The notes below the pieces were generated by a model. The model saw only the letters and a program-made list of their open reading frames with translations. It did not search any database and was not told where the DNA came from. Shown one piece after another: positions 4,001 to 61,078 of a DNA stretch of 64,000 nucleotides. Position 1 is the stretch's first letter, and the number at the start of each line of letters is the position of its first letter. This DNA comes from Escherichia coli (GTDB taxonomy: Bacteria; Pseudomonadota; Gammaproteobacteria; Enterobacterales; Enterobacteriaceae): the NCBI RefSeq assembly GCF_003334305.1, contig NZ_QOWS01000009.1; one strand, written 5' to 3'. The position numbers were made by a program, and so were the translations under genes.

Positions 4001-4009
4001 GGTTTGATG

Positions 4010-6858: not shown

Positions 6859-6876
6859 ACGTAACTGGTGACTTTT

Positions 6877-6904
6877 GCCCGGCATGACGCCGGGCTTTTT
6901 TATT
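6877..6904. terminator. Bidirectional rho-independent terminator between convergent uhpT and ade
   Basis: GCCCGGC-atgac-GCCGGGC hairpin followed by TTTTTTATT; A-run on the other strand. Confidence 0.7.
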
Positions 6905-12418: not shown

Positions 12419-12639
12419 GGATTCAACCTTTTACAAATGTGTATCGAATGAAGCATAAGTGTAGTTTGCTTTCATCGCTCTCATCATGCTGTACGAAACG
12501 CGCTTGCGTGGTCAGTAAGAAGTGCCAGACTTTATATTCCACTTTTATTCCTTTTTATTCTTATCGATAGCGTTTCGTTTTTTAAACCGCAGCGACCTTA
12601 CCGCTATAGTCAGGTAATCATTAATAAAAGGATAAAAAA

Positions 12640-13458: not shown

Positions 13459-13461
13459 TTC

Positions 13462-16316: not shown

Positions 16317-16411
16317 TGGCGGAAGATCACAGGAGTCGAACCTGCCCGGGACCGCTGGCGGCCCCAACTGGATTTGAAGTCCAGCCGCCTCACCGGAGAC
16401 GACGATCTTCC
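16317..16411 (-). tRNA. selC: tRNA-Sec (selenocysteine tRNA, UCA anticodon)
   Basis: Reverse complement reads GGAAGATCGTCGTCTCCGGTGAGGCGGCTGGACTTCAAATCCAGTTGGGGCCGCCAGCGGTCCCGGGCAGGTTCGACTCCTGTGATCTTCCGCCA, a 95-nt match to E. coli selC with encoded CCA. Confidence 0.97.
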
Positions 16412-16703: not shown

Positions 16704-18086
16704 ATGAAGAGTGAAGTGTTGTCCGTTAAAGAGAAAATTGGTTATGGCATGGGAGACGCCGCCAGCCACATTATTTTCGATAACGTAATGTTATATATGA
16801 TGTTCTTTTATACCGATATTTTTGGCATTCCTGCCGGTTTTGTCGGAACCATGTTTTTGGTCGCTCGTGCACTGGATGCGATTTCCGATCCTTGCATGGG
16901 GTTGTTGGCCGATCGAACGCGCTCTCGCTGGGGTAAATTTCGTCCGTGGGTACTGTTTGGCGCACTGCCATTCGGGATCGTCTGTGTACTGGCCTATAGC
17001 ACGCCAGATCTCAGTATGAACGGCAAAATGATCTATGCAGCAATTACTTACACCCTACTTACCTTACTTTATACCGTCGTCAATATCCCTTACTGCGCAT
17101 TGGGTGGTGTAATCACCAATGACCCGACTCAGCGTATCTCGCTGCAATCCTGGCGTTTTGTGCTGGCGACCGCGGGAGGCATGCTTTCTACTGTTCTGAT
17201 GATGCCACTGGTTAATTTAATTGGCGGTGATAATAAACCACTCGGTTTCCAGGGCGGTATCGCGGTCCTTTCCGTGGTGGCATTCATGATGCTGGCATTT
17301 TGTTTCTTCACCACTAAAGAACGCGTTGAAGCACCACCTACAACAACGTCTATGCGGGAAGATTTACGTGATATCTGGCAAAACGACCAGTGGCGGATTG
17401 TCGGTTTACTAACCATTTTCAATATCCTGGCGGTGTGCGTACGCGGTGGGGCGATGATGTATTACGTCACATGGATTTTGGGCACGCCGGAAGTGTTTGT
17501 CGCTTTTCTCACCACTTATTGCGTGGGTAACCTGATTGGTTCCGCACTGGCAAAACCTCTGACCGACTGGAAATGTAAAGTCACTATCTTCTGGTGGACG
17601 AACGCCCTGCTGGCAGTGATTAGCCTCGCGATGTTCTTTGTTCCCATGCAGGCCAGCATCACTATGTTTGTCTTCATCTTCGTGATTGGTGTGTTGCATC
17701 AACTGGTGACACCTATCCAGTGGGTAATGATGTCCGATACCGTCGACTACGGCGAGTGGTGCAATGGTAAACGCCTGACCGGGATCAGTTTTGCTGGCAC
17801 GCTGTTTGTGCTCAAACTGGGGTTGGCCTTCGGCGGCGCTCTTATCGGCTGGATGCTGGCTTATGGCGGATATGATGCGGCAGAAAAAGCGCAGAACAGC
17901 GCCACGATTAGCATCATTATTGCGCTATTCACGATTGTTCCGGCGATCTGTTATTTGCTGAGCGCGATTATCGCTAAACGCTACTACTCACTCACGACGC
18001 ACAATCTGAAAACCGTTATGGAACAGCTGGCTCAGGGTAAACGCCGTTGCCAGCAACAATTCACCTCTCAAGAAGTGCAGAACTAA
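16704..18086 (+). CDS. yicJ: GPH-family glycoside/pentoside:cation symporter YicJ
   Basis: 460 aa from internal ATG (MKSEVLSVKEKIGYGMGDAASH...) of ORF 16647..18086. Confidence 0.9.
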   Translation: MKSEVLSVKEKIGYGMGDAASHIIFDNVMLYMMFFYTDIFGIPAGFVGTMFLVARALDAISDPCMGLLADRTRSRWGKFRPWVLFGALPFGIVCVLAYSTPDLSMNGKMIYAAITYTLLTLLYTVVNIPYCALGGVITNDPTQRISLQSWRFVLATAGGMLSTVLMMPLVNLIGGDNKPLGFQGGIAVLSVVAFMMLAFCFFTTKERVEAPPTTTSMREDLRDIWQNDQWRIVGLLTIFNILAVCVRGGAMMYYVTWILGTPEVFVAFLTTYCVGNLIGSALAKPLTDWKCKVTIFWWTNALLAVISLAMFFVPMQASITMFVFIFVIGVLHQLVTPIQWVMMSDTVDYGEWCNGKRLTGISFAGTLFVLKLGLAFGGALIGWMLAYGGYDAAEKAQNSATISIIIALFTIVPAICYLLSAIIAKRYYSLTTHNLKTVMEQLAQGKRRCQQQFTSQEVQN

Positions 18087-18095
18087 GGAACGGCA

Positions 18096-20414
18096 ATGAA
18101 AATTAGCGATGGAAACTGGTTGATTCAACCTGGCCTCAATTTGATTCACCCGCTTCAGGTGTTCGAGGTTGAACAGCAGGATAATGAAATGGTGGTCTAT
18201 GCTGCCCCCCGTGATGTGCGTGAACGTACCTGGCAGCTTGATACGCCTTTATTTACGTTGCGCTTTTTCTCCCCACAGGAAGGTATTGTCGGTGTGCGGA
18301 TTGAGCATTTTCAGGGGGCGCTGAATAACGGTCCTCATTATCCGCTCAATATTTTGCAGGACGTGAAGGTCACAATCGAAAACACAGAACGTTATGCTGA
18401 GTTTAAAAGTGGCAACTTAAGCGCGCGTGTCAGCAAAGGTGAGTTCTGGTCACTGGATTTTCTGCGCAACGGCGAACGTATTACCGGTAGTCAGGTGAAA
18501 AATAATGGCTACGTGCAGGACACGAATAATCAACGCAATTATATGTTTGAGCGGCTTGATCTTGGCGTTGGCGAAACAGTTTACGGTCTGGGAGAGCGCT
18601 TTACTGCCCTGGTGCGCAATGGCCAGACGGTAGAGACCTGGAACCGGGACGGCGGCACAAGTACTGAACAGGCGTATAAAAATATCCCGTTCTACATGAC
18701 TAACCGTGGTTATGGGGTACTGGTCAATCATCCCCAGTGTGTCTCTTTTGAAGTGGGATCGGAGAAAGTCTCCAAAGTGCAGTTCAGCGTTGAGAGTGAA
18801 TATCTCGAATACTTTGTTATCGACGGCCCGACGCCGAAAGCGGTACTTGATCGTTATACCCGCTTTACTGGTCGTCCGGCGCTGCCGCCCGCGTGGTCCT
18901 TCGGCCTGTGGCTAACCACTTCATTTACCACCAACTACGACGAAGCGACGGTAAACAGCTTTATCGATGGTATGGCGGAACGCAATCTGCCGCTGCATGT
19001 TTTCCACTTTGACTGTTTCTGGATGAAAGCCTTCCAGTGGTGCGATTTTGAGTGGGACCCGCTGACTTTCCCTGACCCGGAAGGGATGATCCGCCGCCTG
19101 AAAGCGAAAGGGCTGAAAATCTGCGTCTGGATTAACCCCTATATCGGTCAAAAATCCCCCGTCTTTAAAGAGTTACAAGAGAAAGGCTATTTACTCAAAC
19201 GCCCCGACGGTTCGCTATGGCAGTGGGATAAATGGCAGCCAGGTCTGGCGATTTATGACTTTACCAATCCGGATGCCTGCAAATGGTACGCCGACAAACT
19301 GAAAGGTCTGGTCGCGATGGGCGTTGATTGCTTTAAGACCGACTTTGGCGAACGTATCCCAACTGATGTTCAGTGGTTTGACGGTTCCGATCCGCAGAAA
19401 ATGCATAACCATTATGCGTACATCTACAACGAACTGGTGTGGAACGTGCTCAAGGACACCGTTGGTGAGGAAGAAGCTGTCTTGTTTGCCCGCTCGGCCT
19501 CCGTCGGTGCGCAGAAATTCCCGGTACACTGGGGTGGCGATTGTTACGCTAACTACGAATCAATGGCGGAAAGCCTGCGCGGTGGTTTGTCTATTGGCCT
19601 TTCAGGTTTTGGCTTCTGGAGCCACGATATCGGCGGCTTTGAAAATACCGCTCCGGCGCACGTTTACAAACGCTGGTGCGCGTTTGGTTTGCTCTCCAGC
19701 CATAGCCGTTTACACGGTAGCAAATCTTATCGTGTGCCGTGGGCCTACGATGATGAGTCCTGTGATGTGGTGCGCTTCTTCACGCAACTGAAATGCCGCA
19801 TGATGCCGTATCTGTATCGTGAAGCTGCGCGTGCGAACGCGCGGGGTACGCCGATGATGCGGGCCATGATGATGGAGTTCCCGGACGATCCGGCTTGTGA
19901 TTACCTTGACCGTCAATACATGTTAGGCGACAACGTGATGGTTGCGCCGGTGTTCACTGAAGCGGGCGATGTGCAGTTCTACCTGCCGGAAGGTCGCTGG
20001 ACACACCTGTGGCACAACGATGAACTCGACGGTAGTCGCTGGCATAAACAGCAGCACGGCTTCCTGAGTCTGCCCGTTTATGTGCGTGATAACACTCTAC
20101 TGGCGCTGGGCAACAACGATCAACGTCCCGATTACGTGTGGCACGAAGGCACGGCATTCCACCTCTTTAATCTGCAAGACGGGCATGAAGCCGTCTGTGA
20201 AGTGCCCGCTACTGACGGATCGGTGATCTTTACTTTAAAAGCAGCACGTACTGGCAACACGATTACTGTGACTGGTGCGGGCGAGGCGAAGAACTGGACG
20301 CTGTGCCTGCGCAATGTTGTGAAAGTAAATGGTCTGCAAGACGGTTCGCAGGCTGAAAGTGAGCAGGGGCTGGTGGTGAAGCCTCAAGGGAATGCGCTGA
20401 CAATTACGTTGTAA
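18096..20414 (+). CDS. yicI: Alpha-xylosidase (GH31)
   Basis: 772 aa, 9 nt downstream of yicJ; GH31 catalytic region (WINPYIG.., GGDC). Confidence 0.95.
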
Positions 20415-45094: not shown

Positions 45095-45144
45095 CAGTGC
45101 GGTATCAGTATTCAGGTAGCTGTTGAGCCTGGGGCGGTAGCGTG
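45095..45144 (+). promoter_or_regulatory. JUMPStart-like element containing the ops site (GGCGGTAGCGTG) in the waaQ leader
   Basis: TCAGGTAGCTGTTGAGCCTGGGGCGGTAGCGTG with ops at 45133..45144, about 50 nt upstream of the waaQ start. Confidence 0.75.
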
Positions 45145-45193: not shown

Positions 45194-46252
45194 GTGGATA
45201 AGCCATTTCGAAGAATTTTGCTCATTAAGATGCGTTTTCATGGGGATATGTTATTAACTACTCCCGTCATTAGTTCGCTGAAAAAAAATTACCCTGACGC
45301 AAAAATCGATGTGCTGCTTTATCAGGACACCATCCCGATCCTGTCTGAAAATCCAGAGATTAACGCGCTCTACGGCATAAAAAATAAAAAAGCAAAAGCC
45401 TCAGAAAAAATTGCCAACTTTTTTCATCTCATCAAGGTATTACGTGCCAATAAGTATGACCTTATCGTCAATCTTACCGATCAATGGATGGTTGCTATAC
45501 TGGTTCGCTTATTAAATGCCCGTGTGAAAATTTCCCAGGATTATCATCATCGGCAGTCTGCTTTTTGGCGTAAAAGTTTCACCCATTTGGTGCCGTTGCA
45601 GGGTGGAAATGTGGTGGAAAGTAACTTATCCGTGCTGACACCATTGGGACTTGATTCGTTGGTGAAGCAGACAACCATGAGTTACCCGCCTGCAAGCTGG
45701 AAACGTATGCGTCGCGAACTTGATCACGCTGGTGTTGGACAAAATTATGTGGTTATCCAACCTACGGCGCGGCAAATCTTCAAATGCTGGGACAACGCCA
45801 AGTTTTCCGCTGTGATTGATGCCTTACATGCTCGTGGTTATGAAGTCGTTCTGACGTCCGGCCCAGATAAAGACGATCTGGCCTGCGTCAATGAAATTGC
45901 GCAGGGATGCCAGACGCCACCAGTAACGGCGCTGGCTGGAAAGGTGACCTTCCCGGAACTTGGTGCGTTAATCGATCATGCGCAGCTGTTTATTGGCGTT
46001 GATTCCGCACCGGCGCATATTGCCGCTGCAGTTAATACGCCGCTGATATCGCTGTTTGGTGCGACAGACCATATTTTCTGGCGTCCCTGGTCAAATAACA
46101 TGATTCAATTCTGGGCGGGAGATTACCGGGAAATGCCAACGCGCGATCAGCGTGACCGAAATGAGATGTATCTTTCGGTTATTCCGGCGGCAGATGTCAT
46201 TGCTGCTGTCGATAAATTACTGCCCTCCTCCACGACAGGTACGTCGTTATGA
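45194..46252 (+). CDS. waaQ: LPS heptosyltransferase III WaaQ
   Basis: 352 aa from GTG; GT9; conserved N-terminal RRILLIKMRFHGD requires a start upstream of the first ATG. Confidence 0.88.
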   Translation: MDKPFRRILLIKMRFHGDMLLTTPVISSLKKNYPDAKIDVLLYQDTIPILSENPEINALYGIKNKKAKASEKIANFFHLIKVLRANKYDLIVNLTDQWMVAILVRLLNARVKISQDYHHRQSAFWRKSFTHLVPLQGGNVVESNLSVLTPLGLDSLVKQTTMSYPPASWKRMRRELDHAGVGQNYVVIQPTARQIFKCWDNAKFSAVIDALHARGYEVVLTSGPDKDDLACVNEIAQGCQTPPVTALAGKVTFPELGALIDHAQLFIGVDSAPAHIAAAVNTPLISLFGATDHIFWRPWSNNMIQFWAGDYREMPTRDQRDRNEMYLSVIPAADVIAAVDKLLPSSTTGTSL

Positions 46253-47373
46253 TCGTTGCTTTTTGTTTATATAAATATTTTCCCTTTGGCGGTTTGCAGC
46301 GTGATTTTATGCGTATTGCTCAGACAGTCGCCGCCCGAGGTCATCATGTTCGGGTTTATACCCAGTCGTGGGAAGGCGAATGCCCTGATGTATTTGAACT
46401 GATCAAAGTGCCGGTTAAATCGCATACCAATCACGGGCGCAATGCGGAGTATTTTGCCTGGGTGCAAAAACATTTACGCGAACATCCCGTCGATAAAGTC
46501 GTTGGATTCAACAAAATGCCGGGGCTGGACGTTTATTATGCCGCTGATGTTTGTTATGCCGAGAAAGTAGCGCAGGAAAAAGGCTTTTTCTATCGCCTGA
46601 CGTCACGTTATCGCCATTATGCCGCCTTTGAGCGGGCAACCTTCGAACAGGGCAAGCCGACACAGCTGCTGATGCTGACAGATAAGCAAATCGCCGATTT
46701 CCAGAAACATTATCAGACTGAAGCGGAGCGTTTTCATATTCTGCCACCGGGGATTTATCCTGATCGTAAATATAGCCAGCAGCCAGCCAATAGCCGTGAA
46801 ATCTTCCGTAAGAAGAATGGAATAACCGAACAACAATATTTATTGTTGCAGGTCGGTTCAGACTTCACGCGTAAAGGTGTCGATCGTTCCATTGAAGCAC
46901 TTGCTTCGTTACCGGATTCGCTGCGCCACAACACATTGCTATATGTTGTTGGGCAGGATAAACCGCGAAAATTTGAGGCGCTGGCAGAAAAACGCGGTGT
47001 GCGCAGTAATGTTCACTTTTTCTCGGGGCGCAATGATGTCTCGGAATTAATGGCGGCGGCGGATTTATTACTGCATCCTGCCTACCAGGAAGCGGCGGGA
47101 ATTGTGCTGCTGGAAGCGATTACTGCAGGATTACCGGTACTAACAACTGCCGTTTGTGGCTATGCGCATTATATTGTCGACGCTAATTGCGGCGAGGCTA
47201 TTGCTGAGCCATTCCGCCAGGAAACATTGAATGAGATTTTACGCAAAGCGTTAACGCAATCTTCATTGCGCCAGGCCTGGGCGGAAAATGCGCGACATTA
47301 TGCTGATACACAAGATTTATACAGTCTGCCAGAGAAAGCGGCGGATATCATAACGGGTGGTCTGGATGGTTGA
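46249..47373 (+). CDS. waaG: LPS glucosyltransferase I WaaG (GT4)
   Basis: 374 aa; start overlaps waaQ stop by 4 nt. Confidence 0.95.
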
Positions 47374-48163
47374 ACTTAAAGAGCCGTTTGCCACGTTATG
47401 GCGCGGCAAAGATCCTTTTGAGGAAGTTAAAACCTTGCAGGGTGAGGTATTTCGTGAACTGGAAACTCGCCGTACTCTGCGCTTTGAAATGGCGGGCAAA
47501 AGCTATTTTCTCAAATGGCATCGCGGCACGACCCTGAAAGAGATAATCAAAAATTTACTCTCATTGCGGATGCCAGTATTAGGCGCTGACCGCGAATGGA
47601 ATGCGATTCATCGACTGCGGGATGTCGGCGTTGATACTATGTATGGGGTGGTATTTGGCGAAAAAGGCATGAATCCGCTGACCAGAACTTCATTTATTAT
47701 TACCGAAGATCTGACACCAACCATAAGTCTGGAAGATTACTGTGCTGACTGGGCGACTACCCCTCCAGATGTTCGCGTAAAGCGTATGCTTATTAAGCGT
47801 GTCGCGACGATGGTGCGCGATATGCATGCTGCGGGCATTAACCACCGTGACTGTTATATCTGTCATTTCCTGCTGCACTTGCCTTTTTCCGGTAAGGAAG
47901 AGGAGTTAAAAATTTCGGTAATTGACCTGCACCGGGCGCAGCTTCGCACGCGCGTTCCACGTCGTTGGCGGGATAAAGATCTTATTGGGCTTTATTTTTC
48001 TTCGATGAATATCGGCCTGACTCAGCGGGATATCTGGCGGTTTATGAAAGTGTATTTTGCCGCCCCGCTTAAAGACATTCTCAAGCAGGAACAAGGACTG
48101 CTGTCGCAAGCAGAAGCAAAAGCCACAAAAATCAGGGAAAGAACGATTCGAAAATCGTTGTAA
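47366..48163 (+). CDS. waaP: LPS core heptose I kinase WaaP
   Basis: 265 aa from ATG overlapping waaG 3' end by 8 nt ([21 protein letters not shown]...). Confidence 0.93.
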
Positions 48164-48178
48164 TTTCCGGAGAGAAAT

Positions 48179-49195
48179 ATGAGTGCCCACTATTTTAATC
48201 CACAAGAGATGATCAATAAGACAATCATCTTCGATGAAAGGCCAGCGGCGTCAGTGGCATCATCATTCCATGTTGCTTATGGCATTGATAAAAACTTTCT
48301 TTTTGGTTGTGGTGTTTCAATCACGTCAGTTTTGTTACATAACAACGACGTGAGTTTTGTTTTCCACGTTTTTATTGATGATATCCCTGAAGCCGATATC
48401 CAGCGTTTAGCCCAATTGGCGAAAAGCTATCGTACCTGTATCCAGATCCATCTAGTAAATTGTGAACGGCTTAAGGCATTACCGACGACCAAAAATTGGT
48501 CTATTGCCATGTATTTCCGTTTTGTAATTGCAGATTACTTTATTGATCAACAAGATAAGATCCTTTACCTGGATGCTGATATCGCCTGTCAGGGAAACTT
48601 AAAGCCGCTGATAACAATGGATCTTGCCAATAACGTTGCTGCTGTTGTTACTGAACGCGATGCTAACTGGTGGTCGTTACGGGGTCAAAGTCTGCAGTGT
48701 AATGAACTTGAAAAGGGTTACTTTAATTCAGGTGTCCTGTTAATTAATACACTAGCGTGGGCGCAGGAGTCCGTTTCTGCTAAAGCGATGTCGATGCTTG
48801 CTGATAAAGCCATCGTTTCCCGTTTAACCTATATGGATCAAGATATCCTTAATCTTATCCTGTTAGGGAAAGTTAAATTCATTGATGCTAAATACAATAC
48901 GCAATTTAGTTTAAATTATGAATTAAAAAAATCATTTGTTTGTCCAATTAATGATGAAACCGTATTAATTCATTATGTCGGCCCGACAAAACCCTGGCAT
49001 TACTGGGCCGGTTATCCAAGTGCGCAACCTTTTATCAAAGCCAAAGAAGCATCGCCCTGGAAAAATGAACCGTTAATGCGGCCAGTTAACTCAAACTATG
49101 CTCGTTATTGCGCCAAGCATAATTTTAAACAAAACAAACCAATTAACGGGATAATGAATTATATTTATTATTTTTATTTAAAGATAATAAAATGA
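48179..49195 (+). CDS. waaO: GT8 LPS alpha-1,3-glucosyltransferase (WaaO/WaaI type)
   Basis: 338 aa; DxD motif LYLDADIACQG and HYVGPTKPW motif; first gene after waaP; AT-rich. Confidence 0.8.
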   Translation: MSAHYFNPQEMINKTIIFDERPAASVASSFHVAYGIDKNFLFGCGVSITSVLLHNNDVSFVFHVFIDDIPEADIQRLAQLAKSYRTCIQIHLVNCERLKALPTTKNWSIAMYFRFVIADYFIDQQDKILYLDADIACQGNLKPLITMDLANNVAAVVTERDANWWSLRGQSLQCNELEKGYFNSGVLLINTLAWAQESVSAKAMSMLADKAIVSRLTYMDQDILNLILLGKVKFIDAKYNTQFSLNYELKKSFVCPINDETVLIHYVGPTKPWHYWAGYPSAQPFIKAKEASPWKNEPLMRPVNSNYARYCAKHNFKQNKPINGIMNYIYYFYLKIIK

Positions 49196-49211
49196 AATTG
49201 AGAAAAGTTAA

Positions 49212-50207
49212 ATGAATGAATTTATAAAAGAACGGTTTTCGTATTTAGCAGATAATAAAAAAGAAAACGCCCCAGAGCTAAATGTTTCCTACGGTATCGA
49301 TAAGAATTTTTTGTATGGTGCTGGCGTTTCAATTTCTTCCGTTTTGATTAATAATTCAGATATTAATTTTGTCTTTCATGTTTTCACTGATTATGTGGAT
49401 GATGATTATTTAAAGTCATTTAATGAAACAGCAAAACAATTTAATACCTCAATTATTGTATATTTAATTGACCCCAAATACTTTGCTGATCTGCCGACGT
49501 CACAGTTTTGGTCGTACGCGACATACTTCAGGGTATTGTCTTTTGAATATCTGAGTGAAAGTATTTCCACACTGCTGTATCTGGATGCCGATGTTGTTTG
49601 TAAAGGAAGCCTGAAACCTCTCACAGAAATTATATTTAAAGATGAGTTTGCTGCGGTCATTCCTGACAATGATAGTACTCAGGCGGCATGTGCAAAACGC
49701 CTCAACATTCCCGAAATGAATGGACGTTATTTCAATGCAGGCGTTATCTATGTCAATCTTAAAAAATGGCATGAAGCAAATTTGACACCGTATTTACTCA
49801 AACTTTTACGAGGGGAAACTAAATATGGCTCTCTTAAATATTTAGATCAGGATGCGTTGAATATCGCATTTAATATGAATAATATCTACCTTGCGAAGAA
49901 TTTTGATACTATTTATACCCTGAAAAACGAACTTTATGATCGTAGTCATCGAAAGTATCAGCAAACCATTACCGATAAAACAGTGTTGATTCACTATACA
50001 GGGATAACTAAACCATGGCATAGCTGGGCTGGATATCCGTCTGCATCATACTTTAATATCGCGCGTGAACAATCTCCCTGGAAGAAATATCCTCTTAAAG
50101 AGGCGCGGACTGTTGCAGAAATGCAGAAACAATATAAGCATCTGTTTGCCCATGGTGAGTATATAAAAGGCATAACTTCATTAATTAAGTACAAGCTTAA
50201 GAAATAA
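49212..50207 (+). CDS. waaT: GT8 LPS alpha-1,2-glycosyltransferase (WaaT-like, R1 outer core)
   Basis: 331 aa; LYLDADVVCKG and HYTGITKPW; name assigned from R1 gene order, not from a search. Confidence 0.65.
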   Translation: MNEFIKERFSYLADNKKENAPELNVSYGIDKNFLYGAGVSISSVLINNSDINFVFHVFTDYVDDDYLKSFNETAKQFNTSIIVYLIDPKYFADLPTSQFWSYATYFRVLSFEYLSESISTLLYLDADVVCKGSLKPLTEIIFKDEFAAVIPDNDSTQAACAKRLNIPEMNGRYFNAGVIYVNLKKWHEANLTPYLLKLLRGETKYGSLKYLDQDALNIAFNMNNIYLAKNFDTIYTLKNELYDRSHRKYQQTITDKTVLIHYTGITKPWHSWAGYPSASYFNIAREQSPWKKYPLKEARTVAEMQKQYKHLFAHGEYIKGITSLIKYKLKK

Positions 50208-50216
50208 ATTACTCTT

Positions 50217-50909
50217 ATGATTACAAGTATACGTTATCGCGGCTTCTCATTTTATTACAAAGATAATGATAATAAATATAAAGAAATCTTTGATGAAATA
50301 CTGGCCTATAATTTTAAAACAGTAAAAGTATTACGTAATATTGATGATACCAAAGTATCATTGATTGATACGAAATATGGTCGCTATGTTTTTAAAGTCT
50401 TTGCCCCGAAAACGAAAAGGAATGAACGTTTTTTAAAATCTTTTGTAAAAGGTGACTACTATCAGAATTTGATCGTTGAAACCGATCGTGTCAGAAGTGC
50501 AGGTCTTACTTTTCCTAATGATTTTTATTTTCTGGCTGAGCGTAAAATTTTCAACTATGCCAGTGTTTTTATTATGCTTATCGAGTATGTCGAGGGCGTA
50601 GAGCTCAATGATATGCCGATTATTCCAGAAAATGTTAAAGCAGAAATTAAGGCTTCAATGGAAAAATTGCATGCCTTAAATATGCTATCGGGCGACCCAC
50701 ACCGGGGTAATTTTATCGTTAGTAAAGATGGTGTCAGGATAATTGACCTATCCGGTAAAAGCTGTACGGCAGAGCGTAAAGCTCGTGATCGTCTGGCCAT
50801 GGAACGTCACCTGGGTATTGCCAACGAAATAAAAGATTATGGCTACTATTCAGTAATCTACAGAACCAAACTACGCAAATTTATTAAAAAATTAAAAGGC
50901 AAAGCGTAA
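50217..50909 (+). CDS. waaY: LPS core heptose II kinase WaaY
   Basis: 230-aa small kinase-like protein between GT8 genes; matches WaaY family. Confidence 0.82.
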   Translation: MITSIRYRGFSFYYKDNDNKYKEIFDEILAYNFKTVKVLRNIDDTKVSLIDTKYGRYVFKVFAPKTKRNERFLKSFVKGDYYQNLIVETDRVRSAGLTFPNDFYFLAERKIFNYASVFIMLIEYVEGVELNDMPIIPENVKAEIKASMEKLHALNMLSGDPHRGNFIVSKDGVRIIDLSGKSCTAERKARDRLAMERHLGIANEIKDYGYYSVIYRTKLRKFIKKLKGKA

Positions 50910-50934
50910 ACCACACAGTCAAAACGGAACCAAC

Positions 50935-51960
50935 ATGGATTTATTAGCTGAGAGTATTACTGAAGTCGCTGTCTCTGGGGAAATTGCTAACACCGATCGT
51001 GTGTTAAATATCGCTTACGGTATTGACCGTAACTTTTTATTTGGTGCGGCAGTATCTATGCAATCAGTTGTTATGCATAACCCGGACCTTGCGGTTAAGT
51101 TTCATCTCTTTACCGACTACATTGATGAAGATTATCTACAACGTGTTAATGCTTTTACCAGCAAAAATGCTAACGTTGAAGTAATAATTTATAAAGTCTC
51201 CAATGCCTTTATTGATATCTTCCCCAGCCTGAAACAGTGGTCTTATGCAACATTCTTCCGTTTAGTTGCGTTCCAGTATTTGAGTGAAACTATTGAAAAT
51301 CTGTTATATATCGATGCTGATGTCATCTGTAAAGGCTCATTAGCTGGATTGCTTGATATTAATTTTGATGAGGATAAGTTCGCAGCTGTTATTAAAGATG
51401 TGCCTTTTATGCAGGAAAAACCAGCGAAGCGTCTGGCTATAGAGGGACTTCCAGGGAATTATTTCAACGCCGGTGTAGTATATCTGCAGCTTGAAGCATG
51501 GGCGAAAAATGATTTTATGAATAAAGCCATTGCTATGCTGGCAAGTGACCCGCAGCACACGAAGTATAAATGCCTTGATCAGGATATTTTAAATATTCTG
51601 TTCTTTGGTCATTGTATTTTTATTAGCGGCGATTATGATTGCTTTTATGGCATTGACTATGAGTTAAAAAATAAAAGCGATGAAGATTATAAAAAGACCA
51701 TTACCGATGATACTAAGCTGATTCATTATGTTGGCGTAACGAAGCCCTGGAACGACTGGACGAATTATCCCTGCCAGAAGTATTTTAATGAGGCTTATCA
51801 GGCTTCTTGCTGGAATGATGTGGCGTTTATTCCAGCCACGAATGAAAAGCAGTATCAAGTGAAATATCAACATGCAAAGAAAAATGGTGATACGTTTAAC
51901 GCTTTTATTTACTTCATTAAATTTAAATTAAATAAGTATAAAAGAAAACTATTTGGATAA
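50935..51960 (+). CDS. waaW: GT8 LPS alpha-1,2-glycosyltransferase (WaaW-like, R1 outer core)
   Basis: 341 aa; LYIDADVICKG and HYVGVTKPW; position after waaY. Confidence 0.65.
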   Translation: MDLLAESITEVAVSGEIANTDRVLNIAYGIDRNFLFGAAVSMQSVVMHNPDLAVKFHLFTDYIDEDYLQRVNAFTSKNANVEVIIYKVSNAFIDIFPSLKQWSYATFFRLVAFQYLSETIENLLYIDADVICKGSLAGLLDINFDEDKFAAVIKDVPFMQEKPAKRLAIEGLPGNYFNAGVVYLQLEAWAKNDFMNKAIAMLASDPQHTKYKCLDQDILNILFFGHCIFISGDYDCFYGIDYELKNKSDEDYKKTITDDTKLIHYVGVTKPWNDWTNYPCQKYFNEAYQASCWNDVAFIPATNEKQYQVKYQHAKKNGDTFNAFIYFIKFKLNKYKRKLFG

Positions 51961-52044
51961 TAATAAAAATCATGGATGTCTGAGTTACAATAATAATTAA
52001 GGATGAGTACTATCATATTTTATTAGTTCAGGCAAGAGAACACG

Positions 52045-53028
52045 ATGAGCAATGATTACCCTTTAGTATCCATAATAATACCGACGTATAATTCATCTGA
52101 TTACATTACTGAAACTCTAACGAAATTAGAAAAACAAACTTACCCAAATTTTGAAATTGTTATTGTTAATGATGGTTCTAAAGATAACACATCAAACGTT
52201 TTGAGAGAGTATGGGTTAACCCACTCTCGATTAATTATTATCAATAAAGAAAATGGCGGTGTTTCGTCTGCCAGGAATACAGGTATCCGCAAGGCGCAAG
52301 GACAGTTTATATGTTTTATGGATGATGATGATGAGATAGATCCTAACTATCTGCTGAAGATGTATACCAGACAACATGAGACGGGAGGGGATGCGATTTA
52401 TTGTGGGCTTTATGGCCATTATATAAAAGATGGTGTTACTTACTCACCTATAAATACAGAGTTTAATGAAGGATCTTTACTTTTCGACTTTTTTTATAAA
52501 AAGGTTAGATTCCATATAGGGTGCTTGTTTATAAGAAAACAACTTCTGGAAGAGAATAATCTTTTTTTTGATGAAGATTTACGACTAGGAGAAGATCTTG
52601 ATTTTATCTATCGACTGCTAATTACATGCGATATGTATGCGGTTCCATATTATATGTATAAGCATAACTATAGAGAAAATTCCTTAATGAACTCATGTAG
52701 AACCATCACTCATTATCGACATGAGTCATTTGCGCACGAAAGAATCTACTCTTCTGTGATGCAGTTATACAAAGGTAACCGGAAAGAAGAAATTCATACA
52801 TTATTGAGTCAAAATAGAGCTTATCATAAAACTCGTTATTTATGGAATGTTCTACTTAATGGTGATTTTAAACTATTGAATCAATTAGTTGAAAACAATG
52901 ATAAAGAATTAAGAGATTGTAATCTTCCTGGCAAGAGAGATAAGAGACGAGCAAAAATATTAGCATCAAAAAATTATATTCTCTGGAGGATGGTAAGACT
53001 GGTAAATAGAAAAAAGAATAAACGTTAG
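52045..53028 (+). CDS. waaV: GT2 beta-glycosyltransferase (WaaV-like, R1 outer core)
   Basis: 327 aa; N-terminal GT2 signature VSIIIPTYNSSDYITETL..EIVIVNDGSKD; GT2 rather than GT25 argues R1 rather than R4. Confidence 0.65.
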   Translation: MSNDYPLVSIIIPTYNSSDYITETLTKLEKQTYPNFEIVIVNDGSKDNTSNVLREYGLTHSRLIIINKENGGVSSARNTGIRKAQGQFICFMDDDDEIDPNYLLKMYTRQHETGGDAIYCGLYGHYIKDGVTYSPINTEFNEGSLLFDFFYKKVRFHIGCLFIRKQLLEENNLFFDEDLRLGEDLDFIYRLLITCDMYAVPYYMYKHNYRENSLMNSCRTITHYRHESFAHERIYSSVMQLYKGNRKEEIHTLLSQNRAYHKTRYLWNVLLNGDFKLLNQLVENNDKELRDCNLPGKRDKRRAKILASKNYILWRMVRLVNRKKNKR

Positions 53029-53073
53029 ATCTTGCATTAAATAACCCATCCTCGTAGCATAGGTTGAAACTAT

Positions 53074-54327
53074 ATGTCGTTTTGTTGGAATGAAATTAAT
53101 TCTGGTATAAAGTCTTTAATTCTCATATTATGTATTTTTTCTTTAATGACTTTGTCTTTATGGGATGATGTTGCAACAAAGTTTCTTCATGCAGCTGGAA
53201 TTATATCTGCATTGTATTTTCTTGCGACACCAAAAAAAACAATAACTAATAATCCTACTTTGTTAATTTTCATCTCATTATGTCTTTTGGGTATCGTAAA
53301 TATCATCTGGTATTCACATTATAAAGTTTCAGGCTCTGTTTATACCAATGCATATCGTGGCCCAATGGAAACTGGAAAAATTGCCTTGTGTAGCGCTTTT
53401 ATTTTCTTAGTTCTTTTTGCTAAAAATGAGATGAGAACAAAAATAAAATTTGGGAAACTAATTCTGTTCGCATCCCTGGCAACGCAGTTACTTTTTTTTG
53501 CGCATGCCATGTGGCAACATTTCTATTTAAACGTCGACCGTGTTGCATTATCAGCTTCCCACGCTACAACAGCAGGCTACATCATCCTTTTTCCTTCTTT
53601 ACTGGCATCAATTCTCATTTTAAAATCCGACTTTAGACATAAAACAACATTATATACAATTAACTTCATGCTTAGCTTATGTGCTGTCATAGTAACTGAG
53701 ACGCGTGCAGCCATATTAGTGTTTCCATTCTTTGCGTTAATATTAATCGTAATGGATAGTTATATTAATAAGCGAATTAATTATAAGTTATATTGTTTTA
53801 TTACGATTGCATTATTAGCAGGTGTATTTTCTTTTAAAGATACATTGCTTATGAGAATGAATGACTTAAATAACGATTTAGTTAATTATTCGCATGATAA
53901 CACCAGAACTTCAGTCGGTGCCCGTCTGGCAATGTATGAAGTTGGCTTAAAAACATATTCTCCAATAGGACAATCACTGGAAAAACGTGCGGAAAAAATA
54001 CATGAACTAGAAGAAAAAGAGCCTAGATTGAGTGGCGCTTTACCCTATGTAGATTCTCATTTGCATAACGATCTCATAGATACGTTATCAACGCGTGGTA
54101 TTCCTGGAGTTGTATTAACAATTTTAGCATTTTCAGCAATACTCATATATGCCTTAAGAACTGCTAAAGAACCTTATATTTTAATCTTGCTTTTTTCACT
54201 ACTGGTAGTAGGACTAAGTGATGTAATACTCTTTTCTAAACCGGTTCCGACTGCTGTGTTTATCACCATAATATTGCTTTGTGCTTATTTTAAAGCACAA
54301 TCGGACCAATGTTTATTAGAGAAGTAA
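53074..54327 (+). CDS. waaL: O-antigen ligase WaaL
   Basis: 417-aa polytopic protein; Wzy_C-type motifs TETRAAILVFP and GARLAMYEVGL shared with K-12 WaaL; last gene of the plus-strand operon. Confidence 0.85.
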   Translation: MSFCWNEINSGIKSLILILCIFSLMTLSLWDDVATKFLHAAGIISALYFLATPKKTITNNPTLLIFISLCLLGIVNIIWYSHYKVSGSVYTNAYRGPMETGKIALCSAFIFLVLFAKNEMRTKIKFGKLILFASLATQLLFFAHAMWQHFYLNVDRVALSASHATTAGYIILFPSLLASILILKSDFRHKTTLYTINFMLSLCAVIVTETRAAILVFPFFALILIVMDSYINKRINYKLYCFITIALLAGVFSFKDTLLMRMNDLNNDLVNYSHDNTRTSVGARLAMYEVGLKTYSPIGQSLEKRAEKIHELEEKEPRLSGALPYVDSHLHNDLIDTLSTRGIPGVVLTILAFSAILIYALRTAKEPYILILLFSLLVVGLSDVILFSKPVPTAVFITIILLCAYFKAQSDQCLLEK

Positions 54328-54341
54328 TGAATATGTGAAAT

Positions 54342-54370
54342 AAAATCAGCAAGGAAGCTGATTTTATTTC
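54342..54370. terminator. Bidirectional hairpin between convergent waaL and waaC
   Basis: AAAATCAGC-aaggaa-GCTGATTTT followed by a T-rich run. Confidence 0.6.
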
Positions 54371-54396
54371 AAAATTATCTATTAAAGAGTTGTAAT

Positions 54397-55368
54397 TTAA
54401 ATCATGGCAGCGTTTTCTTCAATGAACCGCTTAACAGCATTTGCTGTCAATTGAGACAACTCATTCCCCGGAGCCCTACAAACCATCTGATTCTTCCCAT
54501 ACCCACCAATTAATCCCGGATCGGTTGGTCCATAAACCGTGATATTGGGTCTATCCAGTGCCGCCGTTAAATGGCTTAACCCCGTATCCACCGACACTAC
54601 AAATTTAGCCCCGGCCAGCACGCGGGCAACGCCTTCCAGACTCATCTTCGGCAATACTTCAACATAAGCAAATCCTTCCGCCAGTCGTTTCGCCCGTTCT
54701 TCCTCATGCGGCGCGCCCCACGGAAGTTTAATCCGTATTCCTGAATCAGCCAGTAAACCAATCAATTCTCGCCAGTGTTCTTCCGGCCAGTGTTTATCAT
54801 CACGGGTCGTCGCATGAAGAAATACGGCATATTCGCCAGCATCTGTAGGCAGGTTCGTCAGAAAATGCTGTGCGATAGCATAATCGCCCTGGGTTTGCGG
54901 TTTGCTATAGCCCAAACTTTTGGCAAACAGTTCGCGGGTGCGTTCTACGGCGTGCTGCTGTTTTGCAATATGATGCTTACGATTGTAAAACAGGCTGGCT
55001 AAAGGTTCGCGAGCGGTTTGCCAGTCCATGCCATGCTTTACGCCATGCGCCAGACGCGTCACCAGCGCCGCGCTTTTTACCAGCCCCTGAGCGTCGATAA
55101 CTGCGTCATAGTTCTCTGCTTGTAGCGCTTCACGAAACGCTTTGCGTTCAGCTTTTATAGGGGCCGAGAACCAGGCTTTACGCCAGCGACGTATTGCCAC
55201 AGGAATAACTCGCTCAACGGCAGCGTGCCAGGAAGGAATCTGTGCGAACCCTTCTTCCACCACCCAGTCAAACTTAATTTCTGGGATTGCCTGCTGGGCA
55301 TCAGTGAGTGCGGGCAACGTATGGAGAACATCGCCCATCGACGATGTTTTAACGATCAAAACCCGCAT
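54397..55368 (-). CDS. waaC: LPS heptosyltransferase I WaaC
   Basis: 323 aa, GT9, MRVLIVKTSSMGDVLHTLPALTDA... Confidence 0.95.
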   Translation of the reverse strand: MRVLIVKTSSMGDVLHTLPALTDAQQAIPEIKFDWVVEEGFAQIPSWHAAVERVIPVAIRRWRKAWFSAPIKAERKAFREALQAENYDAVIDAQGLVKSAALVTRLAHGVKHGMDWQTAREPLASLFYNRKHHIAKQQHAVERTRELFAKSLGYSKPQTQGDYAIAQHFLTNLPTDAGEYAVFLHATTRDDKHWPEEHWRELIGLLADSGIRIKLPWGAPHEEERAKRLAEGFAYVEVLPKMSLEGVARVLAGAKFVVSVDTGLSHLTAALDRPNITVYGPTDPGLIGGYGKNQMVCRAPGNELSQLTANAVKRFIEENAAMI

Positions 55369-55371
55369 CCG

Positions 55372-56418
55372 TCAGGCTTCCTCTTGTAACAATAGCGCGT
55401 TGAGTTCTTCCAGTACGCGCTGGGGAGTAATGTCGATCAAGCTCTGGTGATAACCCTCCGCAGCGTCACCTTTACGCACTTTGTGATAGCCGGTAATCAG
55501 GCGGATCACGCGCGCTTTATGGGATAGCGGCGGTGTGAAGTCCGGGCTACTCGGACCATACAGGGCAACCAGCGGACGATTGAGCGCCGCCGCAACGTGC
55601 ATCAGGCCAGAATCGTTAGTGACAATGGCTTTACAGGCTGCAATCAGGATAACCGCTTGATCAAGCTGTGTTTCCCCCGCCAGGTTCCGACACCATGCCT
55701 GCTGCTCGGTATTCAAAGCGGCAAGAATCTCATTGCCTGCTTCATGATCTTTCGCCGAGCCAAACAGAACCACCTGATAACCTTCATCAATCAGCTGCTT
55801 TGCCAGCTCCGCATAGTGGTAGTGTGGCCAGCGTTTTGCCGGACCAAACTCCGCACCCGGGCAAAAACCAATCATCGGACGTTCTGATGAAAGCGAAAAT
55901 TGATTACAGGTATATGATTTTTCACCTTCGCTCACCTGCAACTGCGGCCATAACAATGGCTGCGGCAGATCTTGTGCTGTGCGCATAATGCCTTTGTCAT
56001 AGGCCAGCGCGACATAGCGTTCCACCATTAGCGGCCAGGCTTCTTTATCGAGCACGCGTACATCGTTGAGTAAACCGTAGCGCATCTCGCCGCGCCAGCC
56101 GGTGCGATGAGGAATACCCGCGAAGAAAGGCACTAATGCGGATTTGAAGGAGTTGGGTAAGACGTAGGCGCGGTCGTAGCGCTTTTCACGCAGGCTATGA
56201 CCCAGTTTGCGGCGTTCGCCGATTTCCAGCGCTCCGTGACCGAGAGGCATAGGGATAGCTTCGTTAACTTCCGGCATCCGCGATAATAATGGACGGCACC
56301 ATGCCGGTGCCATCACATCGATTATCGCCTGGGGATAGCGCGCCTGGAGCGTGCGATAGAGACTTTGCGACATCATCATGTCGCCAACCCAAGACGGGCC
56401 GATCACCAGTATTTTCAT
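55372..56418 (-). CDS. waaF: LPS heptosyltransferase II WaaF
   Basis: 348 aa, GT9, MKILVIGPSWVGDMMMSQSLYRTL... Confidence 0.95.
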   Translation of the reverse strand: MKILVIGPSWVGDMMMSQSLYRTLQARYPQAIIDVMAPAWCRPLLSRMPEVNEAIPMPLGHGALEIGERRKLGHSLREKRYDRAYVLPNSFKSALVPFFAGIPHRTGWRGEMRYGLLNDVRVLDKEAWPLMVERYVALAYDKGIMRTAQDLPQPLLWPQLQVSEGEKSYTCNQFSLSSERPMIGFCPGAEFGPAKRWPHYHYAELAKQLIDEGYQVVLFGSAKDHEAGNEILAALNTEQQAWCRNLAGETQLDQAVILIAACKAIVTNDSGLMHVAAALNRPLVALYGPSSPDFTPPLSHKARVIRLITGYHKVRKGDAAEGYHQSLIDITPQRVLEELNALLLQEEA

Positions 56419-56427
56419 GCAGAGCTC

Positions 56428-57360
56428 TTATGCGTCGCGATTCAGCCAGGCCATGTATTCCGTTACACCTTCAGCAACGGTTTTGAACGGTTTGTCGTAA
56501 CCCGCCGCGCGCAGATTTGTCAGATCTGCCTGAGTGAACGCCTGGTAGCGGCCTTTCAGCTTATCCGGGAACGGAATGTATTCGATCTGGCCTTTCTTGT
56601 GATAAGCCAGCGTAGCATCTGCTACTGCCTGGAAGGATTCTGCACGACCGGTGCCGAGGTTGAAGATACCGGAAACGCCATTTTCCAGGAACCACAGGTT
56701 TACATCTGCCACGTCGCCCACATAGACGAAGTCGCGTTTGAAGTTCTCGCTACCTTCAAACAGCTTCGGTGATTCACCGTTGTTAAGCTGAGTGTTGAGA
56801 TGGAACGCGACGCTCGCCATGCTGCCTTTATGGCCTTCACGCGGTCCATAAACGTTGAAATAACGGAAGCCAACAATCTGCGAGTTCGCTTCAGGCAGGA
56901 TTTGGCGAACATATTCATCAAACAGGAATTTTGAGTAACCGTAGACGTTCAACGGTTTTTCGTACTCGCGGGATTCAATAAAGTCGGAGGTGCGTCCGCC
57001 GTAGGTGGCTGCGGAAGAAGCGTACAGGAACGGGATTTCGCGCTCCAGGCAGTAGTGCAGCAGCTCCTTGGAGTATTGATAGTTGTTATCCATCATATAC
57101 TTGCCGTCCCACTCGGTGGTGGAAGAGCATGCGCCTTCGTGGAAAATCGCTTCGACATCGCCGAACTCTTCGCCAGCCATAATCTGGATCAGGAAGTCTT
57201 CCTTATCCATATAGTCCGCGATATCCAGATCCACCAGGTTCACAAACTTGGTGCCGTCTTTCAGGTTGTCCACCACCAGAATATCGGTGATGCCTTTATC
57301 ATTCAGGGCCTTAACGATGTTGCTGCCGATAAAGCCCGCGCCGCCGGTAACGATGATCAT
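56428..57360 (-). CDS. hldD: ADP-L-glycero-D-manno-heptose 6-epimerase
   Basis: 310 aa, Rossmann [11 protein letters not shown]. Confidence 0.97.
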
Positions 57361-57573
57361 AACTGTAACCTTCGAATTATGGAGTCAGAGACAATCTCAG
57401 ACACGAATACTTCTATCATATCACTACACGGCGTTGGCTTCAGCCATTCGCCAAAAGTGAGATTGATGGACGTTATTTATCCTGAATTTTGCAGAAGTGT
57501 TAACGCGTCATCTCGTCGCGACCTATAAGTTTGGGTAATATGTGCTGGAATTTGCCCTGTCTGGAGAATCGCA

Positions 57574-58770
57574 ATGCGTGGAGAATTTTATCAGCAGTTA
57601 ACCAACGATCTGGAAACCGCACGGGCGGAAGGGTTGTTTAAAGAAGAGCGCATTATTACGTCTGCGCAGCAAGCAGATATCACTGTGGCTGATGGAAGCC
57701 ACGTCATTAACTTTTGTGCCAACAACTATCTCGGGCTGGCGAATCATCCGGATCTGATTGCGGCAGCAAAGGCGGGAATGGATTCTCACGGTTTCGGCAT
57801 GGCTTCGGTGCGTTTTATTTGCGGCACTCAGGACAGCCATAAAGAGCTTGAACAAAAACTGGCGGCATTCCTGGGGATGGAAGATGCGATTCTCTACTCT
57901 TCCTGCTTTGATGCTAACGGTGGACTGTTTGAAACGCTGCTGGGTGCGGAAGACGCCATTATCTCCGACGCACTGAACCACGCGTCTATTATTGATGGTG
58001 TGCGTCTGTGCAAAGCTAAACGCTATCGCTATGCCAACAACGATATGCAGGAGCTGGAAGCACGTCTGAAAGAAGCGCGTGAAGCCGGTGCGCGTCATGT
58101 GCTGATTGCCACCGATGGTGTGTTCTCAATGGACGGCGTGATTGCCAACCTGAAAGGCGTTTGCGATCTGGCAGATAAATACGATGCCCTGGTGATGGTG
58201 GATGACTCCCACGCGGTCGGTTTTGTCGGTGAAAATGGTCGTGGTTCCCATGAATACTGCGATGTGATGGGCCGGGTCGATATTATCACCGGTACGCTTG
58301 GTAAAGCGCTGGGCGGGGCTTCTGGTGGTTATACCGCGGCGCGCAAAGAGGTGGTTGAGTGGCTGCGCCAGCGTTCTCGTCCGTACCTGTTCTCCAACTC
58401 GCTGGCACCGGCCATTGTTGCCGCGTCCATCAAAGTACTGGAGATGGTCGAAGCGGGCAGCGAACTGCGTGACCGTCTGTGGGCGAACGCGCGCCAGTTC
58501 CGTGAGCAAATGTCGGCGGCGGGCTTTACCCTGGCGGGAGCCGATCATGCCATTATTCCGGTCATGCTTGGCGATGCAGTAGTGGCGCAGAAATTTGCCC
58601 GTGAGCTGCAAAAAGAGGGCATTTACGTCACCGGTTTCTTCTATCCGGTCGTTCCGAAAGGTCAGGCGCGTATTCGTACCCAGATGTCTGCGGCGCATAC
58701 CCCTGAGCAAATTACGCGTGCAGTAGAAGCATTCACGCGTATTGGTAAACAACTGGGCGTTATCGCCTGA
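57574..58770 (+). CDS. kbl: 2-amino-3-ketobutyrate CoA ligase
   Basis: 398 aa, PLP-dependent. Confidence 0.97.
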
Positions 58771-58779
58771 GGATGTGAG

Positions 58780-59805
58780 ATGAAAGCGTTATCCAAACTG
58801 AAAGCGGAAGAGGGCATCTGGATGACCGACGTTCCTGTACCGGAACTCGGGCATAACGATCTGCTGATTAAAATCCGTAAAACAGCCATCTGCGGGACTG
58901 ACGTTCACATCTATAACTGGGATGAGTGGTCGCAAAAAACCATCCCGGTGCCGATGGTCGTAGGCCATGAATATGTCGGTGAAGTGGTAGGTATTGGTCA
59001 GGAAGTGAAAGGCTTCAAAATCGGCGATCGCGTTTCTGGCGAAGGCCATATCACCTGCGGTCACTGTCGCAACTGTCGTGGCGGTCGTACCCATCTGTGC
59101 CGCAACACCATTGGTGTCGGTGTTAACCGTCCGGGCTGCTTCGCCGAATATCTGGTGATTCCGGCGTTCAACGCTTTCAAAATCCCCGACAATATCTCCG
59201 ACGACCTGGCTTCCATTTTTGATCCCTTCGGTAACGCCGTGCATACCGCGCTGTCGTTCGATCTGGTGGGCGAAGATGTGCTGGTTTCTGGTGCAGGTCC
59301 GATAGGTATTATGGCTGCGGCGGTGGCGAAACACGTTGGTGCACGCAATGTGGTGATCACCGATGTTAACGAATACCGCCTTGAGCTGGCGCGCAAAATG
59401 GGTATCACCCGTGCGGTCAACGTCGCTAAAGAAAACCTTAATGATGTGATGGCAGAACTGGGCATGACCGAAGGCTTTGATGTCGGTCTGGAAATGTCCG
59501 GTGCGCCGCCAGCGTTTCGTACCATGCTCGACACCATGAACCACGGCGGTCGCATTGCGATGCTGGGTATTCCACCGTCCGATATGTCTATCGACTGGAC
59601 CAAAGTAATCTTTAAAGGCTTGTTCATTAAAGGTATTTACGGTCGTGAGATGTTTGAAACCTGGTACAAGATGGCGGCGCTGATTCAGTCAGGTCTGGAT
59701 CTCTCGCCGATCATTACCCATCGTTTCTCTATCGATGATTTCCAGAAGGGCTTTGACGCTATGCGTTCGGGCCAGTCCGGGAAAGTAATTCTGAGTTGGG
59801 ATTAA
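58780..59805 (+). CDS. tdh: L-threonine 3-dehydrogenase
   Basis: 341 aa, zinc-dependent MDR ([15 protein letters not shown]). Confidence 0.97.
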
Positions 59806-60043: not shown

Positions 60044-61078
60044 ATGATGAACAGCACCAATAAACTTAGTGTTATTATTCCGTTATATAATGCGGGCGAT
60101 GATTTCCGCACTTGTATGGAATCTTTAATTACGCAAACCTGGACTGCTCTGGAAATCATTATTATTAACGATGGTTCAACGGATAATTCTGTTGAAATAG
60201 CAAAGCATTACGCAGAAAACTATCCGCACGTTCGTTTGTTGCATCAGGCGAATGCTGGCGCATCGGTAGCGCGTAATCGTGGGATCGAGGTGGCGACGGG
60301 CAAATATGTCGCTTTTGTCGATGCTGACGATGAGGTCTATCCCACCATGTACGAAACGCTGATGACCATGGCGTTAGAGGATGACCTCGACGTGGCGCAG
60401 TGCAACGCTGACTGGTGTTTTCGTGAAACGGGAGAAACCTGGCAATCCATCCCCAGCGATCGCCTTCGCTCAACCGGCGTATTAACCGGCCCGGACTGGC
60501 TGCGGATGGGGCTTTCTTCGCGCCGTTGGACTCACGTTGTCTGGATGGGGGTTTATCGCCGTGATGTTATTGTTAAAAATAACATTAAATTTATTGCCGG
60601 ATTACATCATCAGGATATTGTCTGGACAACAGAATTCATGTTTAACGCGCTGCGTGCGCGATATACCGAGCAATCATTATATAAATATTATCTGCATAAT
60701 ACGTCAGTGAGTCGGTTGCATAGACAAGGGAATAAAAACCTTAATTATCAACGTCACTATATTAAGATTACCCGCCTGCTGGAGAAATTAAATCGAAATT
60801 ATGCCGACAAAATTACGATTTATCCGGAATTTCATCAGCAAATAACTTACGAAGCATTGCGTGTTTGCCATGCGGTGCGCAAAGAGCCGGATATTCTTAC
60901 CCGCCAACGGATGATTGCCGAGATATTTACTTCCGGTATGTATAAGCGCCTGATTACCAATGTGCGCAGCGTGAAGGTCGGTTACCAGGCGTTACTGTGG
61001 TCTTTCCGCTTATGGCAATGGCGCGACAAAACGCGGTCGCACCATCGCATTACGCGTAGCGCCTTTAATTTGCGCTAG
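60044..61078 (+). CDS. waaH: GT2 glycosyltransferase WaaH (YibD)
   Basis: 344 aa, LSVIIPLYNAGDDF..IIIINDGSTDNS GT2 signature. Confidence 0.9.
   Translation: MMNSTNKLSVIIPLYNAGDDFRTCMESLITQTWTALEIIIINDGSTDNSVEIAKHYAENYPHVRLLHQANAGASVARNRGIEVATGKYVAFVDADDEVYPTMYETLMTMALEDDLDVAQCNADWCFRETGETWQSIPSDRLRSTGVLTGPDWLRMGLSSRRWTHVVWMGVYRRDVIVKNNIKFIAGLHHQDIVWTTEFMFNALRARYTEQSLYKYYLHNTSVSRLHRQGNKNLNYQRHYIKITRLLEKLNRNYADKITIYPEFHQQITYEALRVCHAVRKEPDILTRQRMIAEIFTSGMYKRLITNVRSVKVGYQALLWSFRLWQWRDKTRSHHRITRSAFNLR

Follow-up and report, generated by a model that had tools for sequence, protein, structure and literature searches.

A compact, htrL-less hldD–kbl control region in an R1-core Escherichia coli strain: probably the ancestral state of a slot linked to core type

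The annotation of Escherichia coli K-12 places yibB/htrL, an 858-bp gene read in the direction of kbl, between rfaD (hldD) and kbl, whereas no gene separates hldD from kbl in the E. coli DNA analysed here (64,000 nucleotides of contig NZ_QOWS01000009.1, hereafter the window). The presence or absence of htrL is an already known accessory-gene polymorphism, and the gene has been listed with the waa genes as variable (PMC8303582). A preliminary description of the window took K-12 as the implied norm and proposed that the missing gene might indicate where the exchanged LPS-core segment has one of its ends. The locus raises the questions of whether htrL was lost here or gained in K-12, and of whether the junction is the edge of that segment.

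The genes hldD, kbl, tdh and waaH all scored above their NCBIfam equivalog cut-offs (Table 1), and hldD is the first gene of the hldD-waaF-waaC operon. The divergent arrangement of hldD and kbl, 213 bp apart with no ORF between them, was exactly as first described. The ORF listing contains no ORF of at least 20 aa wholly within 57361-57573, and all ORFs of at least 20 codons that touch the spacer overlap hldD or kbl or lie antisense to them. The 213 bp must hold both promoters, in agreement with the description of a compact divergent promoter region. The absence of htrL was also borne out. The best tblastn match of K-12 HtrL in the 64-kb window has an E value of only 5.5, blastn of the 1283-bp K-12 segment against the whole window gave zero matches, and these searches with K-12 HtrL protein and DNA placed no ORF of the PF09612/TIGR02192 family in the junction. 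Neither an htrL elsewhere in the 64-kb window nor a compact K-12 arrangement was found, either of which would have spoken against the difference. The junction is real and not an assembly artefact, because 3466 complete E. coli genomes have the same one. Window 56900-58100 is 100% identical in E. coli M8 (a mouse isolate), in whose annotation the hldD counterpart is named rfaD, and in JNEC-KY180. At the gathering threshold, the only Rfam matches in the 64-kb window are tRNA-Sec (selC, 16321-16411, minus strand) and a JUMPstart element (45106-45144, plus strand), which lies 5' of waaQ.

Table 1. Features of the hldD–kbl junction and its surroundings, in window positions
Feature	Position	Strand	Basis or remark
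Low-G+C (30-41%) outer-core segment, waaO-waaT-waaY-waaW-waaV-waaL	48000-54600		Composition profile; exchangeable core region as delimited by composition
hldD (rfaD/gmhD/htrM), ADP-glyceromanno-heptose 6-epimerase	56428-57360	-	NCBIfam NF008360, 677 bits vs. cut-off 452
Divergent control region, compact htrL-less allele, 213 bp	57361-57573		Between the hldD and kbl CDS
hldD leader, ~48 nt, with RBS AAGG (plus-strand CCTT, 57369-57372)	57361-57408	-	blastn breakpoints, alignments
Conserved hairpin in the hldD leader, UCUGAGAUUGUCUCUGA	57385-57401	-	Compensatory changes, 28 Enterobacterales
hldD promoter block	57409-57451	-	Footprint and block identities
Invariant ATCATA (minus strand TATGAT), -10-like	57415-57420	-	Footprint
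Conserved CTTCAG (minus strand CTGAAG), -35-like, 17-bp spacing	57438-57443	-	Footprint
Poorly conserved 18-bp spacer, empty slot	57452-57469	.	Alignments
kbl-tdh control region, present in both alleles	57470-57573	+	Footprint
AT-rich conserved block, candidate Lrp site	57470-57495	+	
Conserved TCATCTCGT, about -60 from the kbl ATG	57508-57516	+	
-10-like TAATAT	57536-57541	+	
kbl RBS GGAG	57563-57566	+	
kbl, glycine C-acetyltransferase	57574-58770	+	NCBIfam TIGR01822, 747 bits vs. cut-off 493
tdh, 3' of kbl	58780-59805	+	NCBIfam NF003808, 648 bits
waaH, UDP-glucuronate:LPS(HepIII) glycosyltransferase, next after tdh	60044-61078		NCBIfam equivalog cut-off passed

The anatomy of the spacer was derived from a phylogenetic footprint, in which the window spacer was aligned with those of 18 Enterobacteriaceae. 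The hldD leader is common to the htrL-bearing alleles, and their left homology breakpoint falls at 57408/57409. Judged from their conservation and spacing, the TATGAT and CTGAAG hexamers are candidate -10 and -35 elements of hldD, which would put the transcription start near 57408. A simple scan of 57250-57700 for sigma-70 consensus promoters and terminators found none, and literature searches for mapped hldD/rfaD transcription starts yielded no more than a report of heat induction of the operon (PMC8745692). The hexamer assignments on the kbl side are likewise putative. In Salmonella, expression of kbl-tdh is raised by a G>A change at kbl -60, which was described as part of the -35 element, and by mutations in Lrp sites (PMC6593847); the positions of these mutations fit the location of the conserved kbl blocks.

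The hairpin in the hldD leader shows covariation in 28 Enterobacterales: none of 500 shuffles reached its score, and slid controls scored far lower. Its stability in E. coli is ordinary (z = 0.08). The hairpin may work at the level of RNA or, as a palindrome, at that of DNA, and possible roles are a stabiliser of the mRNA 5' end, an operator palindrome or a part of the heat response. A search of 56300-58000 for Rfam families gave none up to E = 1. A 20-codon upstream ORF (57419 to 57357, minus strand), which ends in ATGA on the hldD start, was rejected because its frame is lost in E. cloacae (judged by eye) and its ATG lies inside the presumed -10 element.

Alignment to K-12 showed a replacement of DNA rather than the simple absence of a gene. 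Window 57161-57408 and 57470-57774 are 98.8% and 99% identical to K-12, respectively (blastn), and the 61 bp between them (57409-57469) are replaced by 1283 bp in K-12, with the boundaries at 57408/57409 and 57469/57470. The K-12 segment has a G+C content of 36% vs. 51-54% in hldD and kbl. The hldD promoter block recurs in diverged form in its first ~45 bp, and the identity between the compact block and this counterpart is only 61%. The true insertion point is the unconserved spacer, with both core promoters surviving; in K-12 and the other alleles with htrL, the cassette is bordered by the CTTCAGCC block on one side and by the block beginning at 57470 on the other. A repeat search of K-12 locus 2100-3650 found no terminal repeats, duplications or mobility genes flanking the cassette. 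The best repeat at the cassette ends is an 11-nt inverted pair (GATAAATAACG/CGTTATTTATC), of which ~0.3 are expected by chance by our estimate. With only such short, chance-level repeats present, a mobile-element insertion or excision site (IS, integron or phage att) was rejected. H-NS binding has been recorded in the K-12 htrL-hldD spacer (PMC3946193).

The compact junction is the majority state of the species. It was detected in 3466 of 5426 complete E. coli genomes (64%; at least 80% coverage of the window 56900-58100 query) and the htrL segment in 1959 (~36%), always on the chromosome, and the two sets of genomes are complementary. An outgroup scan with HldD, taking one genome per species, yielded 80 loci; this set is without E. 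fergusonii and Salmonella and within Escherichia contains E. albertii and one divergent record. In nearly all of the outgroup loci that also hold kbl, hldD and kbl are divergent and adjacent. The compact spacer is seen in dozens of Enterobacterales: E. albertii and the divergent Escherichia record have 213 bp, Citrobacter, Enterobacter, Kluyvera, Pluralibacter and others have 214-216 bp, and the more distant Yersinia, Serratia and Photorhabdus have ~230-260 bp. The window spacer is collinear from end to end with those of the 18 Enterobacteriaceae, with the conserved blocks in the same order. Because the outgroups are compact and the spacer is collinear, the compact arrangement is very probably ancestral and the K-12 insertion derived, with nothing lost here. 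The polarity implied by taking K-12 as the norm is therefore reversed.

Core loci were typed by waaL, first with markers in 60 systematically sampled genomes; for the exact counts of core type against htrL state, natural loci were used as queries and matches were counted at 80% coverage. The waa locus of the window has the R1 order waaQ-G-P-O-T-Y-W-V-L (ORFs 45194-54327; M8 annotation), with waaL ending the waaQ operon on the strand opposite to waaC. Comparison of the junction across core types showed that htrL is present in all 1364 R3 genomes (100%), in 451 of the 1033 genomes with a K-12 type core (44%), in 139 of the 1834 R1 genomes (7.6%) and, by subtraction, in at most 5 of the 1195 genomes with all other cores (R2, R4 and untyped; <=0.4%). 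The association is strong (Cramer's V 0.83), although the counts ignore clonal relatedness and, with many O157:H7 and laboratory K-12 records among them, overstate it as a number of independent events. The slot is only 3 kb from the variable waa genes, which accounts for the strong linkage disequilibrium between htrL and core type and leads to the expectation of a compact junction in an R1 strain. The compact state is indeed typical for such a strain (92%). The E. coli core-typing papers searched make no mention of htrL.

Exceptions to the association were verified at single loci: annotation confirmed R1 loci with htrL, and a compact junction was likewise confirmed at a K-12-type locus. Many of the compact K-12-type genomes may belong to ST131, for which a K-12 core has been reported (PMC8715443). 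The htrL alleles of R3 genomes differ by up to about 2%. Two further features were seen in the loci compared. The waaH gene, intact in the window, is a pseudogene in an O157:H7 genome (frameshift, locus 18859-19894) and in another R3 strain (internal stop, locus 16859-17893). In E. coli EC2 (R2 core), rfaD is annotated with 981 bp and not 933 bp (locus 12481-13461) and the rfaF–rfaD gap is 79 bp and not 9; the EC2 haplotype is the most divergent in the junction region, with 93.4% identity over window 56900-58100.

If htrL had been present in the E. coli ancestor and deleted in this lineage and most others, the gene should be old in the species, and it is: E. coli htrL alleles differ by up to about 2-10% and occur in divergent backgrounds. 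However, the htrL allele does not contain the compact sequence as such, as the 61 bp are only ~61% identical to the K-12 block. In its promoter block the compact allele is instead 95% identical to that of E. albertii, and it is collinear, at a constant length, with those of many genera; the cassette is distinguished by its 36% G+C, and the htrL-linked promoter block resembles those of other genera. Such an ancestral htrL is hardly credible against these observations. In strain PKF8 (NZ_CP156813.1), the htrL segment is represented only by its first 219 bp (17%), adjacent to rfaD; the junction could be truncated or rearranged and is the sole candidate intermediate seen. The other alternative takes the junction as the right-hand crossover of the event that imported the R1 outer-core genes, with the absence of htrL marking its edge. 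The strong association of htrL state with core type speaks for it, as does phylogroup A, in which K-12 (K-12 core, htrL-positive) and REL606 (R1, compact) differ at both markers. Crossovers at the edge of the slot do happen, as near-identical hldD alleles lie beside different junction states: O157 (R3, htrL-positive) and SC487 (R4, compact) have 1 difference in 981 positions of hldD and its leader, and AGR4587 (K-12 type, compact) and an R3 htrL-positive strain have 6 differences.

Several observations make a defined edge at the junction improbable nonetheless. The low-G+C, type-specific segment, of which waaV-waaL are specific to R1 in the waaL marker searches, ends at ~54.4-54.6 kb at waaL/waaC, ~3 kb to the left of the junction, and G+C returns to 53% from waaC onwards. 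Both junction states occur in both core types concerned, with 139 R1 genomes carrying htrL and 582 K-12-type genomes compact. In the R1 strains with htrL, the proteins from kbl to yibQ are K-12 alleles and rfaC is the R1-associated allele, so that the boundary in those strains lies inside waaC-hldD and not at the junction. The window and O157 have 2 differences in 1301 positions on the kbl side, and these nearly identical flanks around both states indicate that the alleles of hldD and kbl are not partitioned by the presence of htrL. From waaC to waaH the locus is mosaic throughout, and no single boundary can be read from it in one strain. Thus, the linkage half of the boundary proposal is supported, but a defined boundary is not. 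The junction is a second, linked exchangeable slot, a linked indel that is inside the transferred tract in some events and outside in others.

The htrL cassette is found in the same slot and orientation in Enterobacter sp. Ag1, Cedecea davisae, Citrobacter amalonaticus and Atlantibacter hermannii, whose HtrL proteins are 76-82% identical to K-12 HtrL, and htrL is the sole gene in the cassette in five genera. The htrL-linked promoter blocks are 84-91% identical to that of K-12 in C. davisae, C. amalonaticus and A. hermannii and 79.5% in Enterobacter sp. Ag1. C. davisae, which has htrL, also has an E. coli-like hldD leader, and the compact Cedecea neteri lacks it. The shared promoter block and the C. 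davisae leader suggest that the cassette travels between genera together with hldD-proximal DNA. Since the cassette has no hallmarks of a mobile element, homologous recombination through the conserved hldD and kbl flanks is the most likely mode of spread. In Citrobacter youngae, the slot (locus 3052-4203, minus strand) has a 383-aa homologue of the WaaB-like LPS 1,6-galactosyltransferases in place of htrL (NF007396, 383 bits, cut-off 385), and this position may more generally accommodate accessory LPS glycosyltransferases. Distant HtrL paralogues with 53-61% identity stand alone in unrelated islets of E. coli GCA_900448175 (locus 6001-6975), C. freundii and Salmonella, next to an IS1 transposase gene in the E. 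coli genome and a DinI-family gene in C. freundii. The HtrL family appears mobile beyond the waa region, and these homologues were set aside as uninformative on the hldD–kbl junction.

HtrL belongs to the family PF09612 ('WlaTC/HtrL')/TIGR02192, and NCBI names its relatives 'WlaTC/HtrL family glycosyltransferase'. The AlphaFold model of HtrL has a pLDDT of 91.6, and its best structural matches, though weak (TM about 0.45), are GT-A-fold transferases; a PDB sequence search with HtrL gave no significant match. The protein has an invariant DDD at 232-234. A GT-A-like fold is predicted for HtrL, which probably serves as an accessory LPS glycosyltransferase. The HtrL_YibB family has been described as uncharacterised but linked to LOS synthesis in Salmonella, E. 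coli and Campylobacter, and a member lies in the outer-core locus OCL5 of A. baumannii (PMC4172580). In a bolder reading, HtrL would be an enzyme of the GT-A fold by which certain LPS outer cores are modified; that it accompanies R3 without exception (1364/1364) and is nearly missing from R2, R4 and untyped cores (<=5/1195) would then be due to functional coupling beyond linkage; and the hldD–kbl spacer would be a cross-genus slot for accessory glycosyltransferases, holding htrL in five genera and a WaaB-like gene in C. youngae. We regard this as a tentative and rather unlikely proposal. If it were true, the hldD promoter block that the cassettes bring may change heat-inducible hldD-waaFC expression, and the window would be the empty-slot reference state.

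Taken as a whole, the junction of this strain is very probably an ancestral, uninterrupted divergent control region, and the htrL cassette a derived occupant of a slot linked to core type. The 213-bp interval serves two operons, hldD-waaF-waaC leftwards and kbl-tdh rightwards, and consists, from left to right, of the hldD RBS and ~48-nt leader with its hairpin, the hldD promoter block, the 18-bp unconserved spacer and the kbl blocks. In K-12 and ~36% of E. coli, a 1.28-kb low-G+C cassette, with htrL/yibB and a separate version of the hldD promoter block, stands in place of that block and the spacer, and it has most likely spread by homologous recombination via the conserved hldD and kbl flanks. 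For this strain the difference from K-12 has little consequence, as an htrL-less R1 E. coli is expected and there is nothing unusual about the spacer as a conserved divergent promoter region. At the hldD–kbl junction, K-12 is ill-suited as the standard of what is normal. Because htrL is always found in R3 and almost never in R2/R4, its presence could be an inexpensive indicator that correlates with core type, and what HtrL does could be tested in R3 and K-12 cores against an empty-slot background. The perfect co-occurrence of R3 and htrL, the covarying hldD leader hairpin and the occurrence across genera of a cassette that brings an hldD promoter block each seem to be unreported in the papers searched.

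Compared with the hldD-htrL(yibB)-kbl loci of K-12 and O157:H7, the window has the same flanking genes in the same orientation, and the hldD leader and the kbl control region are 99-100% identical. The difference lies in 61 bp of the window, in place of which K-12 has 1283 bp of 36% G+C with htrL, a promoter of its own and a divergent hldD promoter block. The gene absent here is of the HtrL_YibB/WlaTC family (PF09612, TIGR02192), of which no member is encoded in the window. The compact rfaD-kbl junctions of E. albertii, Citrobacter, Enterobacter and others are like that of the window, with 213-216 bp and the same block order, and differ only by ordinary divergence, which is highest in 57452-57469. 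Core types (R1-R4 and K-12) have been described as exchanged when the low-G+C centre of the waa region undergoes homologous recombination (Leclercq et al. 2021, PMC8715443), in a paper with 0 occurrences each of htrL and hldD. The window is similar to the loci described there, with core-genome G+C at waaC-waaF-hldD and a low-G+C centre, and the htrL slot likewise behaves as a second, linked exchangeable cassette without mobile-element remnants. However, 3 kb of conserved DNA lie between the slot and the variable core genes, and its assortment is in part independent of theirs.
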